A stretch of DNA of 64,000 nt, taken from Minisyncoccia bacterium. GTDB lineage: Bacteria > Patescibacteriota > Minisyncoccia > Phycocordibacterales > Phycocordibacteraceae. Position numbers and translations under genes: made by a program. Location of the stretch: the NCBI GenBank assembly GCA_038912545.1, contig JBCLFD010000001.1, forward strand, positions 18,956 to 82,955, read 5' to 3'. Within the stretch, counting starts at the first letter, position 1; every line of letters begins with the position of its first letter. This document shows positions 2,807 through 44,661 of the stretch, piece after piece. Under the pieces are notes generated by a model. The model saw only the letters and a list, made by a program, of their open reading frames with translations. It was not told where the DNA came from and searched no databases.

Positions 2807-4531
2807 ATGTTTCCGTTACACGACTCACTTGATGAAAAGATACGAAAAGAACTGGGCGCATATGACGATCTGACTGCCGCATTACTGTCGCGGCGCGGAG
2901 TGGTGACGAAAGCAGATGCGCAAATGTATTTACAACCGTCATACGATTTGCATCTGCACGATCCACTTATGATGACGGACATGCCGAAAGCCGCCGAGCG
3001 GCTTTCCCGTGCAATTCTTTCAGGAGAAAAAATTGCGGTGTGGAGCGACTACGACTGCGACGGCATTCCGGGCGCGGTCCTGCTCCACGATTTTTTGAAA
3101 AAAGTCGGTGCACAATTTGAAAATTATATTCCGCATCGACACTTAGAAGGGTACGGAATGAATGTGGCCGGCGTGGAGAAGCTGGCAAAAAATGGCGTCA
3201 CATTAATTGTGACGGTTGACTCGGGCATTACCGATGTCGCGCCAGTGACTCGTGCGAATGAGCTTGGTATAGAAGTCATCGTCACTGACCATCACTTGCC
3301 AGGTGAAACATTGCCACCCGCATACGCCGTGGTGAATCCAAATGCTCGCCCCGATGAAAAATATTTGTACAAAAGTTTGTGCGGTTCGGGCGTCGCATGG
3401 AAGCTCGTCTGCGCCGTGCTCGCTACCAATCCGATAGTGCGTGAACGGGTTCCTGTCGGCTGGGAGAAATGGTTGCTGGACATGGTCGGGCTCGCGACTA
3501 TTGCGGACATGGTGCCTCTCACTGGCGAAAACCGTTTACTTGCTACGTATGGACTGCTCGTTATGCGAAAGTCACCGCGGCTCGGTCTACAGAAACTCTG
3601 TCGCGGAGCGCGCGTTGAACAACGAAACATATCAGAAGACGACGTTGGCTTTATGATTGCACCTCGGGTGAATGCTGCGAGCCGTATGGGGGATGCGCGC
3701 GACGTCTTCACGCTCTTCACGACTACCAATGAATCAGAGGCCGACGAGCTTGTTAAAAAATTAGAGAAAGCGAACAGAGAGAGAAAAGCATCTGCTGGTG
3801 CTATCACGCGCGCCGTGCATACGCGAATCAGGGAGAATGGCGCCGTTGCCGATATCATCGTACTCGGCGACCCCGAGTGGCGACCTGGACTGCTCGGCCT
3901 CGTCGCGAACACGATTGCCGAGGAATATGAGCGTCCTGTTTTTCTCTGGGGACGTGAAGGGAATATGAGCATAAAGGGGTCGGTGCGGAGCGGAGAAGTG
4001 CATGCGCTCCACCTTATGCGTTCGGCCGGTGATGTGTTTGTTGAATTCGGCGGACATGCCGCGGCGGGCGGTTTCACTGTGCGTGATGGCGCAGTTTTCT
4101 CTCTAGAAGAGCGCCTGATGAAAGCGCACGCAGAACTTCGCGCGAGGGTGGCAGACGAGGACCCGCTCGTCGCGCGTGCGGATGCGGAACTCAATCTTGA
4201 AGAAATTTCTCCATCGTTCTTTGAGAAGGTCTCTCTGCTCGCCCCCTTCGGCATGGAGAACCCAAAACCTTTGTTTCTGCTCCGCAACGTTGTTGTGAAC
4301 AATATTTCCACATTCGGAAAAGCGAATGAACATCTTAAATTGAATATTGGAACCGAAACGGGCAATCGGTCATTTGACGCCGTGACTTTTTTTGCAAAAG
4401 GAAACATTGCGCGTGTAGCAAAAATGCTGACCCGTGGAGGTCACGCGCATCTGCTCGCACACATAGAACGCGATTCTTTTTCCCGCGCACATCCGATTCG
4501 CCTGCGACTGATTGATATCCGCGCGGTATAA
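2807..4531 (+). CDS. recJ: single-stranded-DNA-specific exonuclease RecJ
   Basis: DHH/DHHA1 motifs (DYDCDG, VTVDSGITD, VTDHH). Start trimmed to MFPLHDSLDEK. Confidence 0.85.
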   Translation: MFPLHDSLDEKIRKELGAYDDLTAALLSRRGVVTKADAQMYLQPSYDLHLHDPLMMTDMPKAAERLSRAILSGEKIAVWSDYDCDGIPGAVLLHDFLKKVGAQFENYIPHRHLEGYGMNVAGVEKLAKNGVTLIVTVDSGITDVAPVTRANELGIEVIVTDHHLPGETLPPAYAVVNPNARPDEKYLYKSLCGSGVAWKLVCAVLATNPIVRERVPVGWEKWLLDMVGLATIADMVPLTGENRLLATYGLLVMRKSPRLGLQKLCRGARVEQRNISEDDVGFMIAPRVNAASRMGDARDVFTLFTTTNESEADELVKKLEKANRERKASAGAITRAVHTRIRENGAVADIIVLGDPEWRPGLLGLVANTIAEEYERPVFLWGREGNMSIKGSVRSGEVHALHLMRSAGDVFVEFGGHAAAGGFTVRDGAVFSLEERLMKAHAELRARVADEDPLVARADAELNLEEISPSFFEKVSLLAPFGMENPKPLFLLRNVVVNNISTFGKANEHLKLNIGTETGNRSFDAVTFFAKGNIARVAKMLTRGGHAHLLAHIERDSFSRAHPIRLRLIDIRAV

Positions 4532-7751: not shown

Positions 7752-8426
7752 ATGGGAATGGAAGGCGAAAAGATAAATTTGAATCGTAGGGAATTTCTTA
7801 AAGTTCTTGGTGCCACGGCCGTTACTGGGATGTTGCCTATAGAAGATGCTGGAGCCGTTGAAAAAAAGAAACCGATATCACCGAGCTTGAGAGGTTCACC
7901 TGAATCACAGAGGAGACAGAACGAGAAAGCCGACAAAGTGAACCTCTCTCGTATCAAGGATGATGCTCAACTGGAAAAGTTTAAGGAATTGAAATTGCTT
8001 GTTCCAATTCCGCAGAACGAGACAGTTCAGATTGATCCTCGACTAGCAGAAAAGTGGCGCTGGGTTCGTCCGTGGACAACAAAATTTCTCAAAGATATCG
8101 GGCGAGAATACTATAGCCAATTCAAAAAACCGATACAGGTAAATTCTGCGGTGCGAACAGTGGAGCGCCAGAACGAACTGCGGGGTACAAACAGAAATGC
8201 GGCGTCAACTGAAGGAGATAAAAAATCATCCCATCTGACTGGTGCGGCTATTGATATTGCGAAGATAGGAATGTCACCCACAGAGCTTGTGTGGATGCGT
8301 AATCGATTGCTCGCTCTTGAGAAACGCGCATTAATTGAAGCAACCGAGGAGAGAAGGCAGCTTGTTTTTCATATCATGGTGTTCAAAAACTACTCCCGTG
8401 TGGGGAGTGTTTCGAAAACTAAATAA
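7752..8426 (+). CDS. Tat-signal secreted peptidase M15-like / DUF5715-like protein
   Basis: RREFLK twin-arginine motif. SSHLTGAAIDIA fits the SxHxxGxAxD zinc D,D-peptidase motif. Confidence 0.5.
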   Translation: MGMEGEKINLNRREFLKVLGATAVTGMLPIEDAGAVEKKKPISPSLRGSPESQRRQNEKADKVNLSRIKDDAQLEKFKELKLLVPIPQNETVQIDPRLAEKWRWVRPWTTKFLKDIGREYYSQFKKPIQVNSAVRTVERQNELRGTNRNAASTEGDKKSSHLTGAAIDIAKIGMSPTELVWMRNRLLALEKRALIEATEERRQLVFHIMVFKNYSRVGSVSKTK

Positions 8427-8458: not shown

Positions 8459-8740
8459 TTAACGGCGTTTTTCCATCTCTTGGTACACGACAGAACGGTG
8501 AAGAATGGCGAAAATGAGAACTTTGCTAGATTGAATACGAAAAACAACTCGGTAGTCGCCGACACGGAGCTTGCGATATCCCTTCAGAGAACGGCGCAAT
8601 GGTCTGCCAAAGAAGTCAGGGCTCGTGGTGAGCTTTTCATCAATCGCGTCGCGAATCTTTTCTCGCCATGCTGGCGCGAGGTGGGGGATGTCGAACTTAA
8701 CGACGATGTCGCGATAAACAACTTCAAACATTAGCGCCAT
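8459..8740 (-). CDS. RelE/ParE-family type II toxin
   Basis: KLRVGDYRVVFRIQSSKVLIFAILHR matches RelE/StbE. It overlaps the upstream antitoxin gene by 10 nt. Confidence 0.75.
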   Translation of the reverse strand: MALMFEVVYRDIVVKFDIPHLAPAWREKIRDAIDEKLTTSPDFFGRPLRRSLKGYRKLRVGDYRVVFRIQSSKVLIFAILHRSVVYQEMEKRR

Positions 8741-8952
8741 GCCTCTTCGTGAGAAATGAATGTGGCGCCCTTCGTATCACGACTCATTGCAACGAAATTC
8801 AGCACTTCGTCCTCTTCAAGCTCAAGTGCCTTTATCAACAGGTGTTCGGCTTTCGTCGCTTGAGGCATCTGATCGCGTTTCGCGAGCCGTCCAAGCATAG
8901 TATCGAGCTCGCGAGAGACACTGATATTAATACGTTTCTTGGTAGTAGCCAT
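8731..8952 (-). CDS. RHH/RelB-type antitoxin
   Basis: 73 aa, ribbon-helix-helix-like N-terminus (RINISVSRELDTMLGRLA), immediately upstream of and overlapping the toxin. Confidence 0.65.
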   Translation of the reverse strand: MATTKKRINISVSRELDTMLGRLAKRDQMPQATKAEHLLIKALELEEDEVLNFVAMSRDTKGATFISHEEAWR

Positions 8953-8959
8953 ATACTAA

Positions 8960-9018
8960 AGTGTATCAGAAGTGTATCACCTGTGCAACTTCTTCCCTGT
9001 GGACACTAAGTGTCCACA
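8960..9018 (-). promoter_or_regulatory. putative TA operator: tandem direct repeats AGTGTATCA x2 (8960-8979) plus a perfect 10-bp inverted repeat TGTGGACACT-a-AGTGTCCACA (8998-9018)
   Basis: Repeats sit immediately 5' of the antitoxin start on the minus strand, typical of RHH autoregulation. The palindrome could alternatively terminate rpmB. Confidence 0.4.
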
Positions 9019-9021
9019 AAA

Positions 9022-9264
9022 TTAAATACGACCGGCTTTTTTGAGAGCAGCGAAGGCGCCGTTCTTTTTTATCGTTTTAAGGCCGTTCGCCGAGACGTCA
9101 ATGATAATCGTCTTGCCGAGCTCTGGCACATAGATGCGACGGCGCTGAAGATTCGCCTTACGACGCACCTTGCCGGTGGGGTTAAACTGCGTCGCACGAG
9201 TACGGTTAGAATACCGCCCGCCGACTTGCGTGCTCTTACCAGTTATTTCACAAGCGCGTGCCAT
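9022..9264 (-). CDS. rpmB: 50S ribosomal protein L28
   Basis: MARACEITGK...VSANGLKTI matches the L28 family. Confidence 0.85.
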   Translation of the reverse strand: MARACEITGKSTQVGGRYSNRTRATQFNPTGKVRRKANLQRRRIYVPELGKTIIIDVSANGLKTIKKNGAFAALKKAGRI

Positions 9265-34106: not shown

Positions 34107-35954
34107 CTACCGCCCTCTATTCTGATAATTGTTTTGAATTTTTTCTTTAACTTGATAACCATAATTATTTTCATTTTGTCTGCGTGATTCAGAATTACTT
34201 TCGGTATGATCAGAAGGCTTCCTGGTATACGGAAGAGTTATAGGTAATGTGATAGGTAGTATAATTGGTTTTATAATGGTTGGAATTGGGGAAAATGTTG
34301 GCAAAGGAAGTATTGTTGGTGCTGGCATTATGATGGGCGTAGGATCTGGAGATAAAACTGGCACAGTAGTTGTGGGTGTGGTTGTTATAGGAGTTGTTGT
34401 AACTGGTGCAATTGTGGTTGGTGGTGTTGTAGTAGCAACAGGCGTGGTAATTGGGGTTGGGTATAGTTGATTCGCCATAGTGATTGCTTTGTCAGCTTTA
34501 ACCAAACCATAACCGTGCCATTTATCATACCCAACTGTTCCAATATCTATGGCGGAACTATCAAGAATATTTCTAATTTCATCATTTATTCTTCCGTTAC
34601 CATTTGAGTCAGTGATGTTCATTCCCATAAGTAACGCTGCTACACCGGTAACATGAGGAGCTGCCATAGATGTTCCATTGTATAAAATATTACCTCCACC
34701 AAGTTTTGTTGAGTTAATATTTACTCCAGGTGCTGATAGTTCTATTTTATTACCCGTTGCGGAAAAACAGGGACGAGCATTTGATGAATCAATTGCAGCC
34801 ACAGCAATTACTGAAGAATACATCGCTGGATACTCTGTAGTATTTGTATCGCCAAGACAAGTTCCAGAATTACCAGCCGAGGCCACATTGATAATTCCCT
34901 TGGCTTCTAATGCGGTAAAAGCTGACTCAAGTCCATTGCCAGGATTGGTTGGTGTACCATAACTACTATTTGTAATTTGTATACCGTTATTGACTGACCA
35001 TTGTAACGCTGCAATAATATCACTCGTATATCCCTTTCCTTGAGCATCTAAAACTTTCAAAGCATAAATTTTTACATCAGGTGCTACACCAATAACACCA
35101 ACATTGTTTTTTATAGCCGCAATAGTTCCAGCAATGTGTGTACCATGCCCATTATCATCAAGTGGATCCGCTGTACCATTTACGAAATTAAACCCACCAG
35201 CATAATTTAAATTTAAATCCGTATGGTTGTAGTCAATACCAGTATCTAGGACTGCCACTTTAATTGTCTTTCCTGTTTGACCAGAAGCATGCGCAGAATC
35301 AGATCCAATGTGCAAAACACCCCAAGTATTTGTGTATTCTTGAACAGCACGAATGTAAACTAACTCGTCTATTTCAACAGAAGCAACATTAGGATCTTTA
35401 GAAAGATTTATTACTTCTGAATCAGAAACTTCTGCAGCAATAGCTGGAATAATGTTAAACGTGTGTTTTCTTTTTCCACCTCTAGAAAAAATAAAATCCT
35501 CGTCTGCTTTAATTGGGTTTCTTTTATAGTTAATGATGACTCTTTTTGTAGTTGTAGGTGTAGAGGACACTGCAACATTTGTGGTTTGAGAATTAATTGG
35601 GCGATTTTCTAAAAATGAAGGAGACTCTAATTTGGCAATGGGGTTAGCATTAGTAGATTTAGTTAACGTATTTAATATACTTAAAGTTTTTGGACCGACT
35701 ACACCAACGGTTTCAACGCCATATTTTTTTTGAAAAGCTGTAACAGCTTTTTTTGTTAGTAGGCCATAATAACCAGTAACCAGACCTTCTGGATATATAG
35801 AAATATCTGTAGACAAAAGTTTTTGTAAATTTGAAACATCTTCACCTCTAGATCCAAGAGTAAGATTTCTTGTAAAGGTTGCAGAATCTGCCAAAACTGA
35901 TGAGGTAAATAAAAATGGAACTACTAATAAAAATGGTAATAATTTTTTTTTCAT
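34107..35954 (-). CDS. subtilisin-family (S8) serine protease with N-terminal peptidoglycan-binding domain and Thr/Pro-rich C-terminal linker; the gene is AT-rich
   Basis: Signal peptide. PG_binding_1 (LQKLLSTDISIYPEGLVTGYYGLLTKKAVTAFQ). Asp/His/Ser triad (DTGIDYNH, HGTHIAG, GTSMAAPHV). TTPPTTIAPVTTTP repeats. Confidence 0.8.
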   Translation of the reverse strand: MKKKLLPFLLVVPFLFTSSVLADSATFTRNLTLGSRGEDVSNLQKLLSTDISIYPEGLVTGYYGLLTKKAVTAFQKKYGVETVGVVGPKTLSILNTLTKSTNANPIAKLESPSFLENRPINSQTTNVAVSSTPTTTKRVIINYKRNPIKADEDFIFSRGGKRKHTFNIIPAIAAEVSDSEVINLSKDPNVASVEIDELVYIRAVQEYTNTWGVLHIGSDSAHASGQTGKTIKVAVLDTGIDYNHTDLNLNYAGGFNFVNGTADPLDDNGHGTHIAGTIAAIKNNVGVIGVAPDVKIYALKVLDAQGKGYTSDIIAALQWSVNNGIQITNSSYGTPTNPGNGLESAFTALEAKGIINVASAGNSGTCLGDTNTTEYPAMYSSVIAVAAIDSSNARPCFSATGNKIELSAPGVNINSTKLGGGNILYNGTSMAAPHVTGVAALLMGMNITDSNGNGRINDEIRNILDSSAIDIGTVGYDKWHGYGLVKADKAITMANQLYPTPITTPVATTTPPTTIAPVTTTPITTTPTTTVPVLSPDPTPIIMPAPTILPLPTFSPIPTIIKPIILPITLPITLPYTRKPSDHTESNSESRRQNENNYGYQVKEKIQNNYQNRGR

Positions 35955-40745: not shown

Positions 40746-40784
40746 CTACTTTTGTACGCGCACTACGAAGCTTTAGCGAAGTAG

Positions 40785-40856
40785 TGCTCTCGGTCAGAAT
40801 CGAACTGACATTGGCCCCTTCGGAGGGGGCTATCCTATCCGTTGAATGACGAGAGC
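40785..40856 (-). tRNA. tRNA-Arg (anticodon CCG)
   Basis: Hand fold. Acceptor GCTCTCG/CGAGAGC, anticodon stem GCCCC/GGGGC, loop CTCCGAA, T-arm GTCAG-TTCGATT-CTGAC. Confidence 0.8.
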
Positions 40857-40939
40857 ATTCTTTCTCCATATTACTCCTCATTAGATTTGGCACAGGCGGG
40901 GAGCCGCATTGGTGCTTGCCCCGTAGCTAACGCGAAGCG

Positions 40940-41488
40940 TTATGGTACTGGGGACAATGCATTCTTGATTTTTTCTTTAACTTGTATAGGAACGTCTTTA
41001 TCCTCAGCAAGTTTTGTGAAAAATGGATATAGGTAACGCCGATTATTTTTTGAGATTAGCAACTGAAAAAATTTATCTGTATAGAAATATGTGTCAGAAG
41101 CATCAAAATCATACATTACAAGTTTTGAAACATTGATATCATCGTAATCATTGATAGAAATCCAACCAATTTTACTCCCATATTTTATACCGGTCGCCCT
41201 GCTGAAAAAACAGCCCGCGGGGCAATCTCGAGCCTCGCCATAATTTATTTTAAAAACTTTCAGATTTTGTGTCGGAACATTGACAAGAATATTAACCCGT
41301 TGACTTTTGGGGAAATCAGCACTTTTAACAAAATTATTAATAACATCGTCGGAACCTATAGATGCTAGAAAATATGGCAAAATTATGTCTCCCTGTTTTT
41401 GTATAAAAATATAACCAACCACACCAAGAATGATAATGATTATTCCAATCAAAATTATATTCACAAATCCTTTTTGATTTATTTTCAT
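40940..41488 (-). CDS. membrane-anchored protein of unknown function (AT-rich gene)
   Basis: MKINQKGFVNIILIGIIIIILG TM anchor. The listed N-terminus overlaps tRNA-Arg(GCG) and was trimmed. C-terminus ...IQVKEKIKNALSPVP. Confidence 0.5.
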   Translation of the reverse strand: MKINQKGFVNIILIGIIIIILGVVGYIFIQKQGDIILPYFLASIGSDDVINNFVKSADFPKSQRVNILVNVPTQNLKVFKINYGEARDCPAGCFFSRATGIKYGSKIGWISINDYDDINVSKLVMYDFDASDTYFYTDKFFQLLISKNNRRYLYPFFTKLAEDKDVPIQVKEKIKNALSPVP

Positions 41489-41597
41489 AGATTTATTAGT
41501 TATAATTTTCGACTTTATGATTAAAAAATTTTCTTCCCCCAAAATTAAAATACGGTTCAAGCCGATGTTTCCCGAGCCTATTCTACCATATCCTATT

Positions 41598-41672
41598 TGG
41601 TGCTCTCGACAGGAATCGAACCTGTATTGGTAGCTCCGCAAGCTACTGTCCTATCCGTTGAACGACGAGAGC
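41598..41672 (-). tRNA. tRNA-Arg (anticodon GCG), CCA encoded
   Basis: Hand fold. Same acceptor/D-arm as the CCG isoacceptor, anticodon stem GTAGC/GCTAC, loop TTGCGGA, T-arm ACAGG-TTCGATT-CCTGT. Confidence 0.75.
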
Positions 41673-42263: not shown

Positions 42264-42320
42264 ATTCAAGTTAGCTTGTCCTTTTCACTCTGAATTACTT
42301 GGCTCAAGGAGGGCCCAAAT

Positions 42321-42752
42321 ATGTTCAAAACTATCATCGCTTTGTTGTTCGTCGCGTTTGTTGCGGCAGGTTGTGTGTCTGTGCCGGTCGATGATCGACC
42401 GGTGGTTGCGGGCTTGCATCTCGGCAAGAATATTTTGTCGAGACCACTTGCTGCTGATGCACGACTGCCTCGTGGCTGCACGTACGATAACGACGGGACA
42501 AAGTACGGTTCCGTGCTCTGCGAGCAGGCACGCGCACCGGTTCGACAATACGTCGAGACGCCCGTCTACGTAGCGCCGGTTTGCGGGCCGTATGGATGTC
42601 CCGTTGTGGCGCCCGCGTACTCGAGCGTACAGATCTGGCGCGGGGGATTTGCAGTTCAATCGGGGCCCATGTATGGGCCAATGTTCGGACCCGCATACGT
42701 TCCCGTTCGGCAGTGCAACATGTGGTGGCCGTACAACTGCTGGTACCGATAA
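42321..42752 (+). CDS. Cys/Pro/Tyr-rich lipoprotein
   Basis: Lipobox LLFVAFVAAGC, 9 Cys, repeated PxY(G)P motifs, terminator immediately after. Confidence 0.5.
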   Translation: MFKTIIALLFVAFVAAGCVSVPVDDRPVVAGLHLGKNILSRPLAADARLPRGCTYDNDGTKYGSVLCEQARAPVRQYVETPVYVAPVCGPYGCPVVAPAYSSVQIWRGGFAVQSGPMYGPMFGPAYVPVRQCNMWWPYNCWYR

Positions 42753-42778
42753 AACTATCGCCCTCCGATAGTTCGCAA

Positions 42779-42808
42779 CGCTAAAGGGCATCCGATGGAT
42801 GCCCTTTT
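42779..42808 (+). terminator. Rho-independent terminator (AAAGGGCATCC-gatg-GATGCCCTTT + TTC)
   Basis: Perfect 10-bp stem with flanking A/T runs; could act bidirectionally. Confidence 0.6.
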
Positions 42809-42921
42809 TCTATTGTAGGATTGTGGTTGCCATATTTGACTTATTATCTCAATAATATCATTTTTCAGCTCACTAAACCATTGCATTAATTTTATACCTT
42901 GTGTATACTATAGTTATCACT

Positions 42922-43614
42922 ATGAAATCAACACAGCAACAAAATATGTTCGGTTTATCTAATAAACAGACTGGTTATTCTGTTTATAACGAGGATGCAA
43001 AAAAACGAGCAAAGCAAAATACACTCTCGGAACTTTATCCTAAATTGCCGAACAAAAAATTTGATGTAATTTATGCTGATCCACCTTGGGATTATAATGG
43101 TAAGTTGCAATTTGATAAAAGTAGTACAAATGTAGAAAATCTGGATTTGTCGCGGAAGATATTTATCAGTTCGGCTTCATTTAAATATCCGACACTAAAA
43201 ACAACTGAACTAATGAAATTACCTGTTCAAGAAATTGCAAAAGGTGATTGCTTATTATTCATGTGGACATCAAATCCACATTTGGCTCAAGCGATAGAAC
43301 TTGGTAATGCCTGGGGTTTTGATTATAAAACTGTTGCTTTTGTTTGGGATAAAATGAATCACAATCCTGGGCAATACACACTTTCAAATTGTGAGATATG
43401 TCTAGTATTCAAAAGAGGCAAGATACCAAGACCACGCGGAGCAAGAAATATAAAACAGTTGGTTAGAAGTCCGAGAAAAAAACACAGCGAGAAACCAATG
43501 GAGGTAATTCAAGCAATAGAAAAAATGTTTCCTAATCAAGAACGCATCGAATTATTTGCAAGACGAAAAACGGACGGTTGGTCAGTTTGGGGATTAGATG
43601 TGTTTAACGAGTAA
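42922..43614 (+). CDS. MT-A70-family N6-adenine DNA methyltransferase (R-M system M subunit)
   Basis: DVIYADPPWDYNGK (DPPW motif IV), MT-A70-like fold order. AT-rich. ATG at 42922 preferred over the listed GTG at 42901. Confidence 0.75.
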   Translation: MKSTQQQNMFGLSNKQTGYSVYNEDAKKRAKQNTLSELYPKLPNKKFDVIYADPPWDYNGKLQFDKSSTNVENLDLSRKIFISSASFKYPTLKTTELMKLPVQEIAKGDCLLFMWTSNPHLAQAIELGNAWGFDYKTVAFVWDKMNHNPGQYTLSNCEICLVFKRGKIPRPRGARNIKQLVRSPRKKHSEKPMEVIQAIEKMFPNQERIELFARRKTDGWSVWGLDVFNE

Positions 43615-43624
43615 AACAAATAGT

Positions 43625-44236
43625 CTACATCAGCAAACGCTTCAATTTCTTATTGAAATGGTCAACTAGAGATTTTCCATTTAACGAATTACTCCACATA
43701 AAGAAATGGCCAGAATGGCCTGTATACCAACAGTGAATTTCTCTTACTCTTTTTGGATCTCTAGCAATATCACCTTGAAATACGACCCAAAAAGGTAAAA
43801 CATTCTGACCAAGTTTTCCTTGTTCTCTTAATATCTTCAATAGACCCGGGGTAAAAAACTTATTGGATCTTTCATGGGCATTTCCTCTACCAGCTTTTCT
43901 TGGCTTTCCTTCTACCCACCCGTCTTGTCTTTTAACTTCCACATAAAGAGTCTTTTTAGTCTTTAGATTATCAATAGCAAAATCTGGCACTACTCCATGA
44001 ACCCAAGTTTCGTTCGGATTATAAATTGCAGATAAAGTTTCTTTGCTGAGTTTTATTTTTGAATAGATATCTTTGAATTCTCGTGGTTTAGAACGAACTC
44101 TAAAATCGGTACCCTTGAATTCTTTTGAGAGTATTTCATAAAAATTTTTCTCAGCAATCCCAGCCTTACCTCCGCTAGCATTTTGCCAATTCTCTCTTTT
44201 TCGTAATGCTTTTGTTCCCATAAATTTATTTTTCAA
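43625..44236 (-). CDS. putative Type II restriction endonuclease (PD-(D/E)xK)
   Basis: VPDFAIDNL...YVEVKRQ fits PD...ExK. Convergent with the MTase, directly downstream of and overlapping a C-protein gene. Confidence 0.55.
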   Translation of the reverse strand: MKNKFMGTKALRKRENWQNASGGKAGIAEKNFYEILSKEFKGTDFRVRSKPREFKDIYSKIKLSKETLSAIYNPNETWVHGVVPDFAIDNLKTKKTLYVEVKRQDGWVEGKPRKAGRGNAHERSNKFFTPGLLKILREQGKLGQNVLPFWVVFQGDIARDPKRVREIHCWYTGHSGHFFMWSNSLNGKSLVDHFNKKLKRLLM

Positions 44237-44444
44237 AAATCATTAGTTTATCAAGTGAGATCTCAAGAGCTTTAGCAATTTTTTCTATGTTTTGGAGTGT
44301 GATATTTTTTTCTGCACGCTCAATCATTCCAACATAGGTTCGATGGACACCTGCTCGTGAAGCTAATTCTTCCTGAGACAAATCTAAGGATAATCGTTTT
44401 TCGCGTACTTTATTTCCAAACTTTACCAACACATCTTTTTTCAT
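44226..44444 (-). CDS. controller (C) protein, XRE-family HTH regulator
   Basis: 72-aa HTH_3 (LSQEELASRAGVHRTYVGMIERAEKNITLQNIEKIAKAL); overlaps the R gene start by 11 nt. Confidence 0.7.
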   Translation of the reverse strand: MKKDVLVKFGNKVREKRLSLDLSQEELASRAGVHRTYVGMIERAEKNITLQNIEKIAKALEISLDKLMIFEK

Positions 44445-44448
44445 AATG

Positions 44449-44462
44449 ATAACTATAGTATA
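44449..44462 (-). promoter_or_regulatory. C-box-like operator/promoter element TATACTATAGTTAT, 5 nt 5' of the C-protein ATG (second copy 42904-42917 5' of the M gene)
   Basis: Identical 14-mer (21-nt near-identity including ATGAAA) in the same orientation relative to both genes. Contains the palindrome ACTATAGT and a TATAGT/TAGTTAT -10-like hexamer. Confidence 0.45.
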
Positions 44463-44574
44463 TGCTCTTGCTAATTTAAGCTCTACATACTACAGTTAGC
44501 ATATATGTTAATCTAATTATTAGACGACGCTTCGCGCCGACCCCATTTCGGCTTCCAATTCCGATTTCCAATTT

Positions 44575-44661
44575 TGGCGGAAGGGGTGGGACTCGAACCC
44601 ACAAGGGCTTGTGACCCGCCAGTTTTCAAGACTGGTTCCTTACCATTCGGAGCACCCTTCC
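44575..44661 (-). tRNA. tRNA-Ser (anticodon TGA), class II, CCA encoded
   Basis: Hand fold. Acceptor GGAAGGG/CCCTTCC, anticodon stem CCAGT/ACTGG, loop CTTGAAA, long variable arm, T-arm GTGGG-TTCGAGT-CCCAC. Confidence 0.85.

Follow-up and report, generated by a model that had tools for sequence, protein, structure and literature searches.

An AT-rich islet of three genes lies at the 3' end of tRNA-Ser(TGA) in a Minisyncoccia bacterium, within the 64-kb stretch of contig JBCLFD010000001.1 that was analysed here as a whole and is referred to below as the window. In our judgement the islet is very probably a complete and compact MunI-family Type IIP restriction-modification (R-M) cassette governed by a controller protein, and represents foreign DNA in a variable site beside the tRNA gene. 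It holds a methyltransferase gene (M), an endonuclease gene (R) and the controller gene (C), the other open reading frames (ORFs) being short (≤51 amino acids, aa) and nested within these three, and from promoter to promoter the cassette spans ~1.65 kb. The original prediction, drawn from the letters of the sequence and its ORFs, had proposed a self-contained Type II R-M system, and M, R and C are indeed all matched by profile or structure-sequence searches; all the defining features of the three families that can be tested in silico were found. MunI is an R-M system from a Mycoplasma sp. that recognises C^AATTG, and MfeI is its isoschizomer. The system described here is an ordinary one of this known type with three genes, and is mildly unusual only in an operator-like 16-mer that is common to both of its promoters. 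Positions follow the numbering of the whole window (Table 1), and L-numbers are labels of comparison loci.

Table 1. The R-M islet, its genes, its borders and its predicted regulatory sites, in window coordinates.
Feature	Position	Strand	Basis or detail
AT-rich inserted islet, ~1.7 kb	42810..44512		GC drop and synteny break
M gene, 230-aa MT-A70 / M.MunI-like N6-adenine DNA methyltransferase	42922..43614	+	DPPW motif; Pfam and PADLOC matches
R gene, 198-aa MunI-family Type IIP PD-(D/E)xK endonuclease	43625..44221	-	Pfam, PDB and PADLOC matches
C gene, 72-aa controller protein (HTH_3)	44226..44444	-	Pfam HTH_3, 2.6e-17
Predicted M promoter	42881..42909	+	TTGCAT (42881-42886), 17-nt spacer, TATACT (42904-42909)
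O_M, operator-like 16-mer (candidate)	42904..42919	+	TATACTATAGTTATCA; core AC-TATA-GT 42907-42914; over the M -10 and predicted +1
O_prox, same 16-mer as O_M (candidate)	44447..44462	-	TATACTATAGTTATCA; TATACT 44462-44457; core AC-TATA-GT 44459-44452
C-box, 33-bp near-palindrome	44469..44501	-	TGCTAACTGTAGT-ATGTAGA-GCTTAAATTAGCA; two boxes, centres 15 bp apart
O_L, strong left box	44496-44489	-	Part of the C-box; core ACTGTAGT
O_R, weaker box	44482-44473	-	Part of the C-box
Intrinsic terminator of the upstream host gene	42783..42807	+	11-bp stem with 6 GC pairs, then T-run
tRNA-Ser(TGA)	44575..44661	-	ARAGORN; 3' end faces the islet; host DNA, right anchor

Endonuclease, methyltransferase and controller protein

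The endonuclease matches the Pfam family RestrictionMunI (PF11407) at 5.4e-68 (229 bits against a cut-off of 25) over profile positions 3-191 of 193, the PADLOC model REase_II at 8e-64, and the protein of the MunI-DNA structure (PDB 1D02) at 1.1e-60, with 101 of the 197 aligned positions identical (51%). Sequence similarity to this solved structure (1e-60) settles the fold of R. The catalytic residues D80, E95 and K97 line up with D83, E98 and K100 of MunI, so that the PD..ExK motif is intact; position 83 reads Ala in 1D02, the crystallised protein being the D83A mutant. Also, the stretch R112-GNAHE-R118 is identical to R115-R121 of MunI. A PD…ExK endonuclease had been put forward as a candidate from the ORF alone, and that assignment is borne out. 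Homologues of R number 1668, and a 198-aa protein of 100% identity is already on record in NCBI.

The length of 203 aa given in the original prediction is likely to need correction. As called, the R ORF runs from TTG 44236, and the alignment to MunI begins at the Met of 44221. The start is most likely this ATG, giving 198 aa, because MunI aligns from that Met, because R homologues are 197-200 aa long in 117 of the 120 among the matches listed, and because the spacing to the C gene is shared: the C stop (TAA, 44228-44226) and the R start (ATG, 44221-44219) are separated by a 4-nt gap, with identical spacing in the four related loci L001-L004. If R starts at 44221, the C and R genes do not have the 11-nt overlap that had been proposed, which probably arose from the mechanical calling of ORFs. 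The operon layout proposed along with it stands despite the corrected start, since C is placed directly upstream of R on the same strand and the two are tightly linked.

The methyltransferase matches Pfam MT-A70 at 8.1e-24 (84.9 bits, cut-off 23.9) over positions 1-171 of 172 and PADLOC MTase_II at 5.5e-65, its translation contains ADPPWDY, and among solved structures its best relatives belong to the MT-A70 family. Its start is most likely ATG 42922, for 230 aa, and not GTG 42901. The expectation of an MT-A70 N6-adenine methyltransferase with a DPPW motif, on the plus strand and convergent with R, thereby holds. The stop codons of M and R are 10 nt apart. Related R loci were collected from exact-protein look-ups, one viral contig and 80 metagenome contigs (n = 85), and M is convergent with R in 80 of them; M was not detected in the other five, where contigs were short or ended too near R. 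The bacterial root group of MT-A70 consists of M.MunI-like enzymes (PMC7145601; PMC4738411), so that a nuclease of MunI type would be expected to pair with an MT-A70 methyltransferase.

For the controller protein, the closest solved relatives are C.AhdI (4.7e-13), C.BclI (1.1e-12) and C.Esp1396I (2.6e-8), and PADLOC Control_protein is matched at 9.6e-23. Together with HTH_3 and a C-box upstream of the gene, these matches agree with the 72-aa controller of XRE helix-turn-helix (HTH) type that had been predicted. In NCBIfam, C gave generic HTH matches only, all under the cut-off, and no model matched M or R. Set beside MunI itself, the cassette is alike in the fold family of R, in its near-equal length (198 against 202 aa for MunI), in the retained PD..ExK and RGNAHER motifs, in an M of the M.MunI-like / MT-A70 (beta-class) group and in the presence of a C protein. 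It is unlike MunI in that R is 51% identical and that the host is here represented by a metagenome-assembled genome (MAG) of the Patescibacteria.

Candidate operators and the predicted circuit

Presence of C was determined for each locus by tblastn and operator motifs were scored by mismatches. The sequence GCTAACTATAGTATGTAG, at ≤3 mismatches, occurs upstream of C in every tblastn C-positive locus and in none of the C-less loci. An alignment of 41 C-carrying loci (32 of them unique) has the consensus ataTGCTAACTATAGTATGTAGaACTAaAaTTAGCaAg..taTATACTa.agttagc, of which the first 33 bp are near-palindromic, with box cores AC-TATA-GT and AC-TAAA-GT and a 5' box that is far better conserved. The published C-box is a 35-bp O_L+O_R element with recognition trinucleotides around a central TATA (PMC3488213), in which a strong 5' copy is followed by a weak 3' copy (PMC2632904), and in its sequence the 33-bp element has the geometry of this architecture. 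The binding sites of C.MunI have been identified experimentally (PMC2632904).

Likeness to the R-M systems of the AhdI/BclI/PvuII type extends beyond C.AhdI and C.BclI as nearest solved relatives to the double-box palindrome with its strong 5' and weak 3' box and to a leader that is very short or absent. The cassette departs from them in the distance from C-box to ATG, which is 25 nt here and typically 17-18 nt (34-54 nt in the 13 relatives listed), and in the central spacer, ATGT/TGTA in place of the canonical GTG.

The position of the M promoter is predicted from sequence, and a constitutive promoter is plausible there. The same arrangement of a TTG-type hexamer, a 17-nt spacer and TATACT is found upstream of M in L002, L084, L097 and L143. 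For the C/R operon, with TATACT taken as the -10 hexamer, O_L would be centred at about -42, O_R at about -27 and O_prox at about -5, and the predicted position of O_L is that of a class II activator. The -35 hexamer of C/R, TAGAGC, is poor. Both predicted messages, that of M (start near 42916) and that of C/R (start near 44450), have 6-nt leaders lacking a Shine-Dalgarno sequence and would be nearly leaderless. A consensus scan had offered TTAGCA/17 nt/TATCAT as an alternative C promoter, which was rejected because transcription would then begin inside the ORF, the -10 ending just 1 nt ahead of the ATG, and because TATACT is the hexamer conserved across loci.

The 16-mer that recurs at both promoters forms the two arms, O_M and O_prox, of the longest inverted repeat of the region (24 nt, 96%, 42904-42927 / 44439-44462). 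O_prox ends 2 nt upstream of the C ATG, and the extended sequence TATACTATAGTTATCA(C/T)TATGAAA leads up to and takes in the start codon of M and likewise that of C. Within the shared 16-mer, a -10-like TATACT leads into ATAGTTA(T/G)C, the half-site also seen in the C-box. Of the C-carrying loci, 30 extend far enough upstream of M to be scored for O_M, which is present at ≤2 mismatches in 24 and at 3 mismatches in one more, against 1 of 25 C-less loci; O_prox follows the C-box at a constant spacing of 7 nt in most loci that have C.

These distributions suggest that C may bind at both promoters. Several points weigh against such an operator role for O_M and O_prox, for which the argument is one of conservation and co-occurrence. 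The loci are related to each other, so their co-occurrences cannot be counted as independent; the 16-mer includes the -10 hexamer, and its conservation may thus partly reflect promoter function; and the -35 hexamer of M fits the consensus at 3 of 6 positions only, in a promoter that the consensus scan did not list. The 16-mer could then be a duplicated core promoter with its initial transcribed region, and C would control C/R alone through the C-box, as in PvuII and AhdI. That the 16-mer begins with a -10-like TATACT, is conserved less than O_L, is absent upstream of M in 5 of the 30 C-carrying loci and is present in the C-less locus L072 would all agree with this explanation. We hold it to be rather unlikely, given that conservation continues for 10 nt beyond the -10 hexamer, that the core of the 16-mer, AC-TATA-GT with TTA(G/T)C after it, is identical to the consensus half-site of the C-box, that the 16-mer is nearly missing from those relatives within the same M family that lack C, and that Esp1396I offers a precedent for one symmetric operator at the M promoter (PMC3488213). 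The locus mentioned, L072:774-2075 from a metagenome, carries the 16-nt site of the M promoter with 0 mismatches, but over the 773 nt that precede R neither a C gene nor a C-box was detected; it may have lost C recently.

For a cassette in which C acts at both promoters, the closest parallel is Esp1396I, where the genes are convergent and C.Esp1396I controls R as well as M (PMC3488213). Shared between the two are the convergence of C-R and M, a related C protein, the O_L+O_R pair upstream of C (35 bp in Esp1396I) and, at the M promoter, a single operator apart from that pair, here a predicted one. The R and M families and the specificity differ, the trinucleotides are AAC/GTA or TAC/GTT here and GAC/GTC in Esp1396I, and here a further copy of the M-type site, also with predicted binding, lies over the -10/+1 region of the C/R promoter.

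The standard controller circuit is the most likely mechanism for these elements, with the C-binding steps deduced from the operator sequences. M would be transcribed first, from a sigma70-like promoter, and would methylate the adenine in CAATTG, and a homodimer of R would cut unmethylated C^AATTG. C would build up slowly from its weak, nearly leaderless message, and the C/R operon, with its poor -35 hexamer, would be activated by a C dimer on the strong O_L. At higher levels of C the weak O_R and O_prox would fill and C/R would be shut off, and C on O_M would probably turn M down once the host is protected, by analogy to the logic of Esp1396I.

Another form of regulation may exist among C-less relatives of this R-M family, in which a complete LexA is often fused to the N-terminus of M. 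In L105 (3604-4902, minus strand) the fusion is 432 aa long and comprises LexA_DNA_bind (1.6e-13), Peptidase_S24 (2.5e-28) and MT-A70 domains. Such fusions occur also in L085, L096, L106, L115, L120, L129 and L133, and L137 and L138 have both the fusion and C. C alone is present in 26 of the classifiable loci and the LexA-M fusion alone in 8; 2 loci have both and 15 neither. Attachment of a self-cleaving repressor to the methylase of an R-M system would point to regulation tied to DNA damage; no LexA-methyltransferase fusion turned up in a full-text search of the literature.

Predicted specificity and activity

The predicted specificity of R is C^AATTG, which we consider likely because the full segment AGRGNAHERS is identical to positions 113-122 of MunI, including R115 and R121. 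According to the MunI structure of Deibert et al. 1999, the segment with R115 and R121 reportedly reads the outer G and the inner bases of CAATTG. This assignment is weakened by its dependence on an overall identity to MunI of 51% together with the identical recognition motif, and by the modest depletion of the site in the host. The 62 kb of host DNA in the window contain 12 CAATTG sites, which would need protection, and the islet contains none. The 12 host sites compare with 21.3 +/- 3.8 in dinucleotide shuffles and with 15.8 expected under a 4th-order Markov model, an observed-to-expected ratio (O/E) of 0.76 that ranks 8th of 64 palindromes and is non-significant. In relatives that lack the R-M system the O/E is 0.93. 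Avoidance of CAATTG was consequently rejected as evidence of activity, as it looks significant against shuffles and not under the Markov model.

A MunI-type enzyme of this kind could recognise a different target, such as another site with an AATT core, as EcoRI or MluCI do, or one with an altered outer base pair. The limited identity to MunI and the weak depletion of CAATTG both leave room for this, and possible mosaicism among EcoRI, MunI and MluCI has been noted in a review (PMC4081073). We find a different target improbable all the same, in view of the unbroken identity of the recognition segment and of the RestrictionMunI profile being covered from end to end.

A decaying or silenced remnant, for example one with an active M and an inactive R whose defence function has been lost, is distinctly improbable. 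Patescibacteria have reduced genomes, and CAATTG is not clearly avoided in this one, as might be expected of such a remnant. Against this, all three ORFs are full length in comparison with their homologues (72, 198 and 230 aa), the catalytic motifs, the recognition residues and DPPW are intact, and the cis elements are likewise intact, the promoters and the C-box being near the family consensus.

Acquisition of the islet and variability of its site

A sharp drop in GC between a terminator and tRNA-Ser(TGA) had been the starting point for the proposal of a genomic islet, and both the drop and the two borders are evident. GC is 0.31-0.39 in 300-nt windows from 42800 to 44450 and 0.52-0.61 in the flanking DNA on either side, with 0.34 for the islet against 0.53 for the host, and the bin 43001-44000 (GC 0.357) is among the two lowest 1-kb bins of the window. 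The terminator hairpin is also conserved after the homologous gene in the relative L005 and marks the left edge of host DNA, and the tRNA gene on the right is intact and host-like. Synteny with L005 and L006 is lost between ~42707 and ~44567. The portion of the islet shared with related cassettes runs from ~42875 to ~44505; the similarity begins ~40 nt upstream of the M -10 and ends just upstream of the C-box.

Homologues of PilM place the host among Patescibacteria of the Kaiserbacteria/Paceibacteria kind. Exact-sequence look-ups for the 203-aa form of R, for PilM and for the 143-aa protein left of the islet gave no contig, and the genomic context was drawn from cluster mates of PilM. Variability of the site is seen in 44 related loci that have p157 and tRNA-Ser(tga), both on the minus strand, followed by ruvX and pilM in conserved order. 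In 18 of these loci ≤120 nt separate the p157 start from the tRNA 3' end; the distance is 120-500 nt in 8 and >500 nt (up to 4.1 kb), with unrelated cargo, in 18. In the closest relatives, L005 and L006 (95-99% protein identity in PilM), the cargo is different and synteny is broken at the site of the islet. None of the 65 host relatives encodes M, R or C. Relatives of the cassette are found elsewhere: R proteins of 72-88% identity are, among the matches listed, in Deltaproteobacteria, Falkowbacteria, Aenigmarchaeota and Nitrososphaera records, and the arrangement of a 72-aa C, a 4-nt gap, a 198-aa R and a convergent M recurs in a Deltaproteobacteria MAG, in Falkowbacteria contigs and in metagenome loci. 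The Falkowbacteria copies in L002 and L004 adjoin a phage-type integrase. Across 66 loci the median GC of the cassette is 0.366, whatever the GC of the flanks (0.28-0.68).

Horizontal acquisition into a variable site beside the tRNA gene, as the original prediction had it, is supported by this record, since the site is empty or holds other cargo in relatives, none of the 65 has M, R or C, and the GC is atypical. That the AT-rich segment should be native DNA of odd composition is scarcely credible, for even though the islet has no attachment (att) repeat, integrase or transposase, the site is empty (≤120 nt) or filled with unrelated cargo among the 44 relatives, the three genes are missing from all 65, R proteins of 72-88% identity occur in distant bacterial and archaeal records, and the cassette keeps a GC of ~0.37 across hosts with flanks from 0.28 to 0.68. 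The nearest cassette by DNA is only ~77% identical, so that no recent donor is in hand. The viral collection yielded one distant locus only (54% identity, no C), and it therefore gives no evidence of a phage-borne cassette.

The manner of insertion is where the evidence runs counter to a classical tRNA-associated island. The partial direct repeat of the tRNA-Ser 3' end that was to be sought at the islet edges is absent: the longest match to the tRNA in 42300-44574 is ≤9 nt, and the left islet edge gave no alignment with the tRNA-Ser 3' end. No integrase or recombinase gene was found in the islet among its ORFs or by Pfam. Two short repeats, D15 and D17, lie inside the M gene and are at chance level. 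The islet resembles tRNA-associated genomic islands in its location at a tRNA 3' end, its atypical GC and its variable content among relatives, and differs from them in having neither a direct repeat of at least 10 nt nor an integrase. It is therefore best described as an insert in a tRNA-adjacent variable site and not as an integrative island.

The same site is occupied differently in the two closest relatives. In L006, 23 nt of the tRNA-Ser 3' end are repeated without a mismatch (1846-1868 and 3217-3239) on either side of a lower-GC islet of 1.37 kb that has a single 417-aa ORF and no integrase, and which looks like an att-flanked islet needing a recombinase in trans. L005 has three tandem copies resembling the tRNA 3' end (7989-8027, 8363-8401 and 8459-8497), of which that at 8363-8401 is closer to the 3' half of the window tRNA-Ser than the intact L005 tRNA is, and an HNH-domain gene (8563-9048) is inserted there between tRNA-Ser and ruvX. 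A 124-aa tRNA_bind (PF01588) gene stands between ruvX and pilM in both (L005:9520-10001 and L006:3753-4234) and is missing from the window, where pilM (from 45109) follows directly on ruvX (to 45104).

Other segments of the window vary as well. To the left of the islet, the upstream host gene is a GC-rich ORF of 143 aa (42321-42752, plus strand), rich in Pro, Val and Tyr and with a lipoprotein-like N-terminus. It shares 63-64% identity with its counterparts in L005 and L006, compared with 90-96% for the neighbouring p157 and RuvX, and is either fast-evolving or part of the variable region. A second AT-rich islet (40857-41597, GC 0.29-0.38) lies between tRNA-Arg(ccg) at 40784-40856 and tRNA-Arg(gcg) at 41598-41672. 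Its one ORF (40940-41641 as called, minus strand) has a likely membrane anchor and no Pfam match; the corresponding site in L005 has a different AT-rich insert between two copies of tRNA-Arg(ccg), and in L006 it measures ~220 nt only. A third low-GC segment (34107-35954, minus strand, GC 0.34-0.40) encodes a secreted protein of 615 aa between glmS and an ABC-F ATPase gene, which are adjacent in L005 at a distance of ~65 nt. Judged by eye, this protein resembles a protease of subtilisin type that also carries a peptidoglycan-binding repeat.

The cassette itself matters little, as its family is named and an identical R protein is already in NCBI, and the value of the present analysis lies in annotation: corrected starts for R and M, candidate operators and promoters, and CAATTG as the predicted motif of N6-methyladenine in this uncultured lineage. 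Two wider features may deserve attention, and it is possible, if somewhat doubtful, that both hold together, namely the predicted four-site circuit (O_L, O_R and the same operator at both promoters) and a recurrent landing site for islets mobilised in trans. As to the circuit, one small protein may time both genes, in a variant of the Esp1396I scheme that may be undescribed for the MunI-type family. As to the landing site, the p157/tRNA-Ser 3' flank may take up small islets devoid of an integrase, some of them with att-like tRNA repeats. The 3' flank of tRNA-Ser(TGA) is a variable insertion site in Kaiserbacteria/Paceibacteria-like genomes, and as such an aid to finding their defence and accessory genes.

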